Assembly (NCBI GenBank): GCA_017961285.1
Contig: JAGCXO010000018.1
Coordinates: forward strand, 874 to 64,873
Direction: 5' to 3'
DNA from: Alphaproteobacteria bacterium
Lineage (GTDB): Bacteria > Pseudomonadota > Alphaproteobacteria > RF32 > CAG-239
Length of the DNA stretch: 64,000 nucleotides
Part shown: positions 8,072 through 60,845 of the stretch, piece by piece
Numbering within the stretch: position 1 is the stretch's first letter
Layout of the letters: each line of letters opens with the position of its first letter
Translations under genes and position numbers: made by a program
Notes under the pieces: generated by a model
Database searches by the model: none
Told to the model about the DNA's origin: nothing
The model's input: only the letters and a program-made list of their open reading frames with translations

Positions 8072-9881
8072 TCTCCTCCAGAATCAAAGCTTCTTTCAAC
8101 AATTTTGAAGCGATTGGGGCTGCCACGCTTGAACCTCCTCCGCCATGTTCCACCAAAACCGCGACTGCATATTTTGGATTATCTTGCGGAGCAAATCCCA
8201 CAAAAAGCGCATGATTGCGATATTTCCAAGGCAAATCTTCCTGCCTTACAATCCCTGTTTGCCGCTCTTTCATTGAAATTCTGCGCACTTGTGTGGTTCC
8301 GGTTTTTCCACACATTTTCTTCCCGTTATAATCAAATCTCGACATAAAAGCGGTTCCTCCCGGACGATTAACCACAGCGCACATTCCCTCTTTTACCAAA
8401 TCCATATAGCGAGAATTTATCTTCATATCAGCAAATTTAAGTTTTTTACTGTCATCAATTTTCAACAACGTCGGCTCAACCATTTTTCCGCCATTTGCAA
8501 TTCTTGCCGTCATAACCGCGAGCTGAATAGGTGTTGTCAAAACATATCCCTGGCCGATACCTGCAATCAAGGTTTCACCCCCTTGCCAAGATGCACCATA
8601 TTTTGCCATTTTCCAAGCCCTGTCAGGAATAATTCCCGACTTTTCATCATCAAAATGCAAAGCTGTCTGGCTTCCCAAACCAAAACGTCTGGCCATTGCC
8701 GCAATTTTATCAATACCGACCTTTTGCGCCGTTTCATAAAAGAATATATCACAAGAATGTTGCAAAGCTTCAACCACATTCAAAGGACCATGTCCCTGCT
8801 TTTTCCAACAGTGGAACAAATGATTACCTAATTCCATTTTCCCACTGCATCCAAAACGCGTTTCCGGAGTGATAACACCGGCCTCCAAAGCCGCCAAAGC
8901 AACCATCATCTTAAAAGTAGAGCCCGGAGAATATAAACCCGCAATCGGTTTATTTATCAACGGCTGTTTTTCATCAAACAAAAGTTGATTATAAGTTGCC
9001 TGATTAACTCCCAAAACAAAATCATTTGAATCATACGAAGGCATAGAAATAAAAGTCAATATCTCACCGGTATTAACATCCATCAGCACCGCGGCACCGC
9101 TTTGCTCTTCAAACAACTCATATGCCTTTTGTTGCAAACGAGCATCAATCGCCAATTGTAAATTTTTCCCTGGCTTGCCGTCAACTCTCTCAATTTCCTT
9201 CATAATTCTGCCGACGGCATTAACCTCCAGCTTCAGATTTCCTCCCTTACCTCTCAACTTTTTCTCAAATCTTTTTTCAAAACCGATTCTTCCGATCTTA
9301 AAATCCGGCGTCATCAATAACGGATCATTATCATTTTGCAAATCTTGTTCAGAAACCGCCGCCACATAACCCAACAAATGTGCCATTTGCTTCCCGAAAG
9401 GATAATTTCTGCTCAAACCGTCATCAACAACTACCCCGGGCATTTCAGACGTTGCCAACAAAATTCTCGAAACATCTTCCCAAGACAAACCGTCTTTAAG
9501 CTTAATCGGCACAAAACGACGATATTTTTTCAAATCACGCTGTATCCGATTCTGTTCCGTTTCCGTCAGTGGCATAATTTTCTTAAATCTGTTCAGTGTA
9601 TCCTGCACATTTGTCGCCTGTTCCGCAACAATCATAGCCTGAAAATTTTGTTTATTACCGGCCAAAACATATCCGTTTCTATCAAAAACAACGCCTCTCG
9701 GCGGCACCAAAATACGCGCGGAAATTCTGTTTTCATCAGACATCGTTTTATATTTATCGGCTTCAAAAACCTGCAAAAAATATAATCGAGCAACAATAAC
9801 AACAAACAGCAACAACTGGATAACACACCAAGCTATTGTCCTGTATATCAAAACTTTTCCTTTGCTGTTATCGCGATTCAT
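8064..9881 (-). CDS. mrdA: Penicillin-binding protein 2 (elongasome transpeptidase)
   Basis: 605 aa with an N-terminal anchor and transpeptidase motifs SxxK (PGSTFK), SCD and KTGT. Confidence 0.9.
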   Translation of the reverse strand: MNRDNSKGKVLIYRTIAWCVIQLLLFVVIVARLYFLQVFEADKYKTMSDENRISARILVPPRGVVFDRNGYVLAGNKQNFQAMIVAEQATNVQDTLNRFKKIMPLTETEQNRIQRDLKKYRRFVPIKLKDGLSWEDVSRILLATSEMPGVVVDDGLSRNYPFGKQMAHLLGYVAAVSEQDLQNDNDPLLMTPDFKIGRIGFEKRFEKKLRGKGGNLKLEVNAVGRIMKEIERVDGKPGKNLQLAIDARLQQKAYELFEEQSGAAVLMDVNTGEILTFISMPSYDSNDFVLGVNQATYNQLLFDEKQPLINKPIAGLYSPGSTFKMMVALAALEAGVITPETRFGCSGKMELGNHLFHCWKKQGHGPLNVVEALQHSCDIFFYETAQKVGIDKIAAMARRFGLGSQTALHFDDEKSGIIPDRAWKMAKYGASWQGGETLIAGIGQGYVLTTPIQLAVMTARIANGGKMVEPTLLKIDDSKKLKFADMKINSRYMDLVKEGMCAVVNRPGGTAFMSRFDYNGKKMCGKTGTTQVRRISMKERQTGIVRQEDLPWKYRNHALFVGFAPQDNPKYAVAVLVEHGGGGSSVAAPIASKLLKEALILEESE

Positions 9882-55672: not shown

Positions 55673-55872
55673 GTCAGCCCTTGCTCGGCGCACCGGTGTC
55701 TTTATTAAAGTCACCCCTCGATTTTGCTTGCAAAATCATCCAGGGGTCTACCGATTAGTTTTTTCATTGTCATCCCTTGCTCGGCGCACAAGCGTCCGTG
55801 CATCAAGGGATCCAAACTTCAGTACTTTAGCACTGCTTCCTTATAAAAATTCGAAGACCCCTTGACCAAAAA
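55673..55872. repeat. Left-flank array of GTCAYCCCT...AGGGRTC clamp hairpins (one partial unit plus a two-hairpin module)
   Basis: Starts 2 nt after the secB stop. 55710-55872 matches 60623-60789 in the same orientation at roughly 9 of 10 positions by eye. Confidence 0.85.
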
Positions 55873-55984
55873 CTAGCGTTTTTGGAGGGGGGACATAAAG
55901 GCTAACTCGAAGATTGCTTGACCTCAGACATTCTGTCTTCGGAGCGATGACATTTATTATAATCGTCATCTTTTCATAACAAAA

Positions 55985-60387: not shown

Positions 60388-60427
60388 ATTAATATTTCTG
60401 TAACATTTCATTAATATTTTTGTAACA
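60388..60427. promoter_or_regulatory. Two 18-nt direct repeats ATTAATATTTYTGTAACA spaced 22 bp apart, upstream of the pilin-like operon
   Basis: 60388-60405 and 60410-60427 are identical at 17 of 18 positions. A third partial copy (ctgtaat) lies at about 60445. They sit 84-123 nt upstream of the 60304 start. Confidence 0.35.
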
Positions 60428-60462: not shown

Positions 60463-60789
60463 GTCATCCCTCCAAACCATCACAAAAAAAACCTGTCATC
60501 CCTCCAAACCGTCATAAAAAAAACCTGTCATCCCTCGATTTTGCTTGCAAAAACAGTATCAAAGTCATCCCTATTTTTTCGCCCTGCGAAAAAATTCAAG
60601 GGATCTACGAATTTATTCAACTGTCATCCCTCGATTTTGCTTGCAAAATCGTCAAGGGATCTACCGATTAGTTTTTTCATCGTCATCCCTTGCTCGGCGC
60701 CCAAGCGTCCGTGTATCAAGGGATCCAAACTTCAGTGCTTTAGCACTGCTTCCTTATATAAAAACTCAAAGCCCCCTTGCCCCAAAAAT
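60463..60789. repeat. Right-flank array of six GTCATCCCT-initiated units, including the two-hairpin module shared with the left flank
   Basis: Unit starts at 60463, 60495, 60527, 60564, 60623 and 60682. Interiors differ but are self-complementary (cgattttgc/gcaaaatcg, attttttcg/cgaaaaaat, cggcgc/gcgtccg). Confidence 0.85.
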
Positions 60790-60845
60790 AAACAAAGGAA
60801 AACGCCCTCTCATCTCACGATGAAAGGGCGTTGTTTTTTTAGAGG

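Follow-up and report, generated by a model that had tools for sequence, protein, structure and literature searches.

A hairpin repeat family with a conserved clamp and free interiors in intergenic arrays of small-genome gut Alphaproteobacteria

An array in a small alphaproteobacterial genome repeats one motif at the base of hairpins whose interiors differ, and it raises the question of what is constrained, the sequence or the folded strand, and to what kind of element such units belong. The window considered here, the whole 64-kb stretch of DNA that was analysed, comes from contig 3 of G000, a 1.196-Mb draft genome of 51 contigs with 39% G+C and 92% completeness. The motif GTCATCCCT starts at 60463, 60495, 60527, 60564, 60623 and 60682, at the spacings of 32, 32, 37, 59 and 59 nt given in a preliminary description of this DNA; together with a seventh copy at 55769, these are all the exact occurrences in the window (n = 7), confined to two arrays. 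The six starts had been read as six units. The last three are indeed full units that fold, closing with AAGGGATC (60598, 60654 and 60718) around self-complementary interiors as had been stated: the inverted repeats are ATTTTTTCGC/GCGAAAAAAT, CGATTTTGC/GCAAAATCG and, imperfectly in the third, TGC-T-CGG-CGC/GCG-T-CCG-T-GTA. Predicted structures of the full units as single-stranded DNA (ssDNA) are stems that carry a 3-nt bulge, with energies of -10 to -14 kcal/mol and z of -4.6 to -5.8; the three units of this array span -10 to -13 kcal/mol and z -4.6 to -5.4. The first three (60463, 60495 and 60527) are instead half-units that lack the right arm and the right clamp, and ssDNA folding gives no fold for them. 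The right array and its border comprise the following features.

60463-60494, 60495-60526 and 60527-60563, plus strand: three half-units, each with left clamp GTCATCCCT, left arm and homopolymer run, then (C)CT or AAA
60564-60622, plus strand: full unit of subfamily B, GTC ATCCCT ATTTTTTCGC-CCT-GCGAAAAAAT TCA AGGGAT C, with tail TACGAATTTATTCAACT; 50.3 bits, DNA fold -13 kcal/mol, z -5.4
60623-60681, plus strand: full unit of subfamily C (CGATTTTGC/GCAAAATCG) with tail TACCGATTAGTTTTTTCATC; 63.9 bits, fold -10.3 kcal/mol, z -5.2
60682-60760, plus strand: full unit of subfamily A (the imperfect interior, with bulged T) and its own tail
60766-60792, minus strand: D-type right-half remnant (tail, right clamp, bulge and one arm), from the alignment of both arrays; a 165-180-nt direct repeat ends here
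60794-60839: intrinsic terminator with a bidirectional shape, separating the array from a lysozyme-like gene; its ortholog is kept in G020

The tail of subfamily A contains a small hairpin, CAGTGCTTTAGCACTG at 60733-60748, and the tail is kept in all A copies. The second array lies across a pilin-like operon from the first, and the locus reads secB, left array, pilin-like operon on the minus strand, right array, the terminator at 60794-60839 and the lysozyme-like gene. Protein neighbours in the window include SecB, a Tim44-like protein and MltA, a set that indicates a reduced alphaproteobacterium. The left array and the operon are made up as follows.

55673-55709, plus strand: decayed A-like half-unit, directly 3' of the secB stop codon
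55710-55768, plus strand: C unit with clamp ACCCCT/AGGGGT; 46.7 bits, with a compensatory T-A to C-G change
55769-55847, plus strand: A unit and tail
55848-55894, minus strand: complete D-type unit (CCAAAAAC/GTTTTTGG); 62.1 bits
55904-55951, minus strand: T-type unit with clamp ATCGCT/AGCAAT and tandem G.A pairs in the interior; 40.9 bits
56026-60304, minus strand: pilin-like operon, bracketed by both arrays and with its own terminator

The two arrays are direct repeats with 165–180 nt in common at ~93% identity, and the right end of this repeat falls inside the interior of the D-type unit, with no clamp there. The pilin-like operon is cargo, outside the repeat family. Ten relatives have a plain terminator 3' of secB and no units, and in G020, the closest relative (genes 82–86% identical), different units and an IS110-family element occupy that interval. 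In AT-rich DNA upstream of the pilin-like gene, at window positions 60388-60427, an 18-nt direct repeat, ATTAATATTT[C/T]TGTAACA, occurs in two copies 22 nt apart and may serve as an operator or a promoter element.

Comparison of units throughout the family defines a general design. The unit starts with a 5' GTC foot and a 6-bp clamp, continues with an inner hairpin, has on its 3' strand a TCA bulge and then the partner of the clamp, and finishes with CT and a WCGAATT tail; unit ends have the form GTCATCCCT ... AAGGGATCT. The clamp pairs run A-T, T-A, N-N', N-N', C-G and T-A (ATNNCT/AGNNAT), and the whole unit measures 37–46 nt, of which an inner hairpin of 7–11 bp (17–26 nt) is free in sequence provided that it pairs. 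When both strands are read, the seemingly distinct module ...AAGATGCCTTGACC...GGAGGCATGAC turns out to be this unit seen from the opposite strand, with a different clamp. Among 124 distinct copies, the G, T and C of the foot are conserved in 123, 122 and 123, and the foot is followed by A (GTCA) in at least 120; the T and C of the bulge are kept in 122 and 123, its third base being A in 100 and C in 23, and the C and T 3' of the stem in 122 and 124. Inner hairpins vary among genomes while clamp, bulge and foot stay constant. In G006 they include CGAAAGCAACC.., CCACCGGCT.. and CATCGAGGC.., and in G008 CGAAACGCG.. and CGTTTTTGAT... Irregularities are also retained, the T subfamily keeping tandem G.A/A.G pairs and the A subfamily its bulged T residues. 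Half-units with a 31–32-nt period recur in other genomes (L195, L225) in the same placement relative to full units, and thus represent a module type rather than random decay. A second hairpin type, GTCATTGCGAGCGAAGCG(T/C)GGCAATC, adjoins units at G000:C36 ~8690-8715, at G000:C46 ~335-360 and, in L242, on the right side of the IS. This type shares the GTC foot and the ATC end of the units, lacks the TCA bulge and includes GCGAAGC, a mini-hairpin of very high stability.

A conserved clamp, free interiors and one compensated clamp change had been taken to mean that the fold is constrained, and this argument holds across both the genome and the genus. The change itself is real: the C unit at 55710 reads GTCACCCCT..AGGGGTC where its counterpart at 60623 reads GTCATCCCT..AGGGATC, that is, ACCCCT/AGGGGT against ATCCCT/AGGGAT. 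When units were picked by GTC, TCA and the inner hairpin alone (96 distinct units from eight genomes), clamp pair 2 was T-A in 84, C-G in 10 and T.G in 2; pair 3 was C-G in 66, G-C in 18, T-A in 6 and unpaired in 6; pair 4 was C-G in 82, G-C in 6 and T.G in 2; and pairs 1, 5 and 6 were nearly invariant. The alignment of 124 distinct copies is fitted to a covariance model, a circularity that the model-independent 96-unit count answers for the clamp. In that alignment pairing holds in 95.9% of cells compared with 67.3% after shuffling, and 0 of 500 shuffles attain the former figure. Two-sided changes occupy 439 cells (147 in shuffles), the covariation score is 0.627 (0.144 in shuffles), and pairing falls to 23–55% when the partner is slid by 1–3 columns. 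Such changes affect three clamp pairs and all eight inner pairs, the latter with 3–5 pair types each. G.T mismatches do not exceed A.C mismatches (15 vs 9).

Covariation alone is no proof of selection, since template switching in DNA palindromes can restore complementarity. However, template switching would erase the bulge, the bulged T and the G.A asymmetries, yet these are kept, which argues that the fold and its irregularities are both maintained. At a post-tRNA site, the orthologous T unit in G020 carries uncompensated mismatches, and thus single resident copies decay. The fold is constrained, then, while single copies at fixed sites decay.

The units form a hairpin repeat family of small-genome gut Alphaproteobacteria that was previously undescribed. 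A literature search for the unit motifs returned chance primer matches only. An exact full-unit pattern matches 16 times in the genome and 0 times in the reversed control, well above chance expectation, and a covariance model built from 19 units finds 48 copies in G000, within the 64-kb window only in the two arrays. These ~48 units occupy 20 loci, all of them intergenic. Across the genus, units are present in 10 of 29 genomes, at 81, 69, 58, 49, 48 (G000), 31, 29, 16, 10 and 5 copies, and the same model at E<=0.001 finds zero units in the other 19. Contigs of these draft metagenome-assembled genomes (MAGs) often end in arrays, so the true copy number lies above the count. On a tree of a 2.2-kb conserved locus (a single locus with a midpoint root), the bearing genomes form no single clade: G042 is without units though its sister G002 bears them, and the four-genome clade beside G000/G020 is also without. 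This patchy tree implies several complete losses or several gains, as expected if upkeep needs an active process. Related contigs derive from MAGs of roe deer, goat, sheep and yak rumen or gut and of human gut.

We favor, with moderate confidence, the reading that these "clamp hairpins" are a dispersed extragenic family of DNA hairpins of the REP/BIME/NIME kind. Where a contig holds both neighbours of a locus, the flanking genes are convergent in seven cases, tandem in six and divergent in one, and units mostly adjoin gene 3' ends or terminators, many arrays lying just outside intrinsic terminators. Recurrent mosaics take the form X(+) A(+) T(-) or X(+) T(-), with units in both orientations and conserved tails that point towards one another. 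Relative to local GC skew, units number 29 on one replication strand and 17 on the other, a bias that is not significant and whose counts are not independent.

This placement also invites a reading at the RNA level, in which the units would be 3'-UTR or intercistronic stem-loops that stabilise, terminate or process transcripts, with an RNA-binding protein or RNase reading the bulge. The enrichment at gene 3' ends fits such a role, as do the start of the left array right behind the stop codon of secB, a position at which relatives carry a plain terminator, the GNRA-type loops of subfamily A (GAAA, GTAA) and the tandem G.A pairs of the T subfamily. However, orientation with respect to flanking genes is inconsistent, the array beginning at 60463 being antisense to both of its neighbour genes; many arrays lie beyond the terminator; G.U pairs are not commoner than A.C; half-units cannot fold; and orthologous copies decay. 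Scans with promoter and terminator consensus patterns placed none in the units, whose stems have no U-tract, and Rfam finds in the whole window only two tRNAs and the SRP RNA, the left array giving only chance-level matches far below gathering scores. TTGAC, the reverse strand of the bulge, was considered as a -35 box and rejected because no -10 box stands at the right distance. An RNA role is rather unlikely, and we lean towards DNA rather than RNA as the folded strand on account of the missing G.T excess, the use of both orientations, the arrays beyond terminators and the lack of U-tracts and Rfam matches, although these points do not decide the matter.

Comparison of orthologous sites shows that the family turns over fast. 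First, array contents differ at orthologous sites among close species. At the post-tRNA site, G000 has a B unit and G020 an A unit between common flanks, with a common left clamp and downstream T(-) unit, and the divergence begins exactly after GTCATCCCT. Second, an array on contig 48 of G000 and one on contig 8 of G020 are 97–99% identical over ~220 nt within unrelated flanks, the homology stopping at GATCCCTTGA^ (^ marks a junction), that is, at clamp plus bulge. In all, three mosaic breakpoints were examined, and the clamp is the site of two of them. Third, the spacer of one convergent gene pair is empty in G016, holds one unit and a partial copy in G000, and holds a 1.45-kb two-gene insert in G020. 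That insert (L243/L248, G020:C36:21016-22641) encodes a secreted protein and a small membrane protein and looks like a toxin/immunity pair. A stretch of ~420 nt that includes coding flanks and an array is ~99% identical between L033 (G000:C36:17950-18370) and L086 (G020:C7), and such identity in species that are otherwise 82–86% identical suggests recent DNA exchange.

A further visitor to these sites is an IS110-family element with a 310-aa DEDD transposase, which sits exactly between GTC and the clamp (GTC^ATCCCT) in at least three places. Its sites are L241:1-1150 (G020:C36), junctions at the end of G020:C26 (L008) and the start of G020:C27 (L019/L102), and L242:1020-2180 (G006:C52). The junctions in the secB interval of G020 read ..TTGTC^ATCAATCC.. 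and ..TAACTAAC^AATCCCT.., another copy in G020 splits an A unit at this very point, and the G006 copy adjoins GTC^AATGGCGG... The family is found in only two of 29 genus genomes, G020 and G006, both unit-rich. As a mobiliser or source of the units it was rejected, since it is present in only two of the ten bearing genomes and interrupts units, and it is better described as an invader. Neither a target-site duplication nor a precise empty site of a unit was recovered; in a test for MITEs, 17 loci showed no constant flanking duplication, upstream bases varied and no matching IS was found. The arrays are hot spots of insertion and exchange where foreign DNA lands, namely the pilin-like operon in the window and, in relatives, an IS110-family element and small gene cassettes, and the clamp is a recurrent breakpoint.

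The genes that adjoin units are housekeeping genes together with those of surface or secreted proteins. The commonest neighbour is a prepilin-like protein, at 12 genome loci and at 14 when metagenome contigs are included, and genes bracketed by unit doublets encode PilS/bundlin-like pilins, outer-membrane beta-barrel, ankyrin and BspA-type LRR proteins and Lcl_C (lectin-like) proteins. At L195:900-5700, on a 547-kb contig of a SIG44 MAG, four tandem ankyrin-repeat paralogues with 35–55% protein identity alternate with unit sets, each made of half-units and one full unit, that are >90% identical and in a single orientation, an order like that of a cassette array. At L072:460-1470 (G011:C3) and L111:187-1193 (G016:C54), A-type units in direct orientation bracket two small multi-pass membrane proteins of 156 and 137 aa, near-identical across both species.

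The preliminary description proposed a search for a cognate RAYT, and none was found. Y1_Tnp (PF01797; RAYT/IS200) has 0 matches in all ten bearing genomes, which are draft MAGs, four of the nine sisters being 99–100% complete. A genus-built Y1 HMM likewise detects nothing among ORFs from 118 GTDB loci with units (E<=0.001), nor among those from 53 unit-bearing metagenome contigs or G000 (E<=1). A Y1/RAYT transposase was thus discarded as the recogniser, being absent from the bearing genomes and from all 171 unit-bearing contigs. IS200-type Y1 genes occur in 11 genus genomes (G001, G009, G023 and eight others), all without units, so that Y1 genes and units are mutually exclusive (11 genomes vs 10); G001 has up to 21 matches, many with stop codons. 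No recombinase or nuclease recurs among the genes beside units, in draft MAGs whose contigs break at arrays and from which a small array-flanked gene could be missing. Other candidates were also set aside. The bearing genomes G011, G006 and G015 have just two Phage_integrase matches, both of the XerC/D type common to all genus genomes; TnpB has no match above the family cut-off in any genus genome; IS91 is found only in G043 and shows no correlation with units; and gene-transfer agents as carriers of cassettes have no GTA_TIM match in the genus. A dif site, sought because it would implicate Xer, was not found in convincing form, and nothing resembled the clamp.

Cassette-like order and breakpoints at the clamp raise a second alternative, that an integron-like cassette system lacking IntI uses the units as attC-like sites and recombines them as folded strands, with crossovers at the clamp moving cassettes. 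The recombinase box would then correspond to the clamp, the extrahelical bases to the TCA bulge and the variable terminal structure to the inner hairpin. The anatomy fits: as with attC sites, the fold identifies a unit better than the sequence does, and above a paired conserved base one strand has extrahelical bases and the terminal structure varies, a likeness of design only. Until now, the combination of fixed base, extrahelical bases and free tip has been the hallmark of integron attC sites. In addition, direct-repeat arrays bracket the pilin-like operon, units lie between gene cassettes at some loci, doublets enclose the pilin, outer-membrane, ankyrin, LRR and lectin-like genes, and L195 alternates gene and unit in one orientation, with divergent ankyrin paralogues and near-identical unit sets. 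However, units of 37–46 nt are shorter than attC sites (57–141 nt) and have no R''/R' core sequences (RYYYAAC/GTTRRRY), no IntI is present or adjacent to units, and no recombinase is recurrent beside them; the only two recombinases of this kind in G011, G006 and G015 are also present in non-bearing genomes. Units in G000 stand in both orientations and are stacked back to back without ORFs between them, whereas one orientation and one unit per cassette are seen only in some foreign loci such as L195. We regard the attC-like reading as rather improbable.

A related and quite doubtful possibility is that clamp hairpins are the recombination sites of an unrecognised folded-strand cassette exchange, in which strands would be cut and rejoined at the clamp, either by an enzyme or by the host XerC/D, which acts on hairpins in the case of the CTX phage. 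Such an exchange would carry pilin, ankyrin, LRR and toxin/immunity cassettes from array to array, within and between species of gut Alphaproteobacteria. That the repeats have neither function nor mobility, being decayed local duplications of one palindrome whose complementarity is restored by template switching, is very improbable: tandem half-units and partial duplications do exist and variation does peak near the loops, but more than ten unalignable interiors share one clamp at 20 unlinked loci and across ten species, the TCA bulge, bulged T and tandem G.A pairs that template switching would erase are conserved, sister genomes have all-or-none counts, and near-identical arrays stand in unrelated flanks.

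The reading as a REP/BIME/NIME-like family of DNA hairpins thus remains the one we favor, and a mechanism can be sketched for it. The unit would be read as a folded single strand, most likely DNA exposed in replication or transfer, by a trans-acting protein that reads foot, bulge and clamp, and only copies with an intact fold would propagate. Propagation of this kind would produce covariation without selection at each locus, alongside the decay of single copies. The repeated arrays would serve as portable homology or as recombination sites that shuffle accessory surface-protein genes. REP-type repeats are not known to persist without their RAYT enzyme. A structure-constrained, all-or-none family in genomes without the known single-strand transposases implies that some other protein probably recognises the folded DNA, by its foot, bulge and clamp.

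The arrays occupy the places at which these uncultured bacteria of gut and rumen diversify their genes for surface proteins and host interaction, and they offer a concrete way to study how a flexible gene pool is maintained in very small genomes. They are also the reason that assemblies of this group break, and the covariance model can annotate them. Their interest would be high should the clamp turn out to be a genuine site of recombination.

Three groups of known repeats invite comparison. RPEs resemble the units in being palindromic repeats of a reduced alphaproteobacterial genome, and an RPE-type likeness had been suggested. However, RPEs measure 100–150 bp and often lie in frame within genes, and the likeness fails because no unit lies in an ORF (0 of 20 loci). 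The suggested REP/BIME likeness, in contrast, is the best available comparison. REP/BIME elements of Enterobacteria and REPINs of Pseudomonas are, like the units, short extragenic imperfect palindromes in tens of copies. They too form mosaic clusters of alternating orientation with conserved linkers or tails, lie mostly between convergent genes or at 3' ends and terminators, are all-or-none among related genomes and are targets of the IS110 family, of which IS621 targets the REPs of E. coli. Both have a conserved 5' foot of the stem, analogous in position but different in motif, GTC here and GT[AG]G in REP. The CT dinucleotide is the cleavage site of RAYT, and the units carry a conserved CT 3' of the stem. 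However, REP/BIME and REPINs are mobilised by RAYT, a Y1 HUH transposase, of which there is none in the bearing genomes or on the unit-bearing contigs. Furthermore, one genome here holds many subfamilies that have only clamp, bulge and foot in common, the inner hairpin being swapped, and half-units are a regular module. The family thus behaves like REP/BIME yet departs from it in two defining features, having neither the GT[AG]G foot nor a RAYT.

The dRS3 repeats of Neisseria consist of terminal inverted hexamers around a variable core (ATTCCC-N8-GGGAAT) and form mosaic intergenic arrays beside variable surface genes. They are integration targets of elements with IS110/Piv-type recombinases and have been proposed to shuffle genes by providing portable homology. 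The clamp hairpins are unrelated to them in sequence and taxon, and differ further in their long inner hairpin and conserved bulge and in having no filamentous phage. In behaviour, the system of dRS3 and the neisserial intergenic mosaic elements (NIMEs) is nevertheless the closest known analogy.
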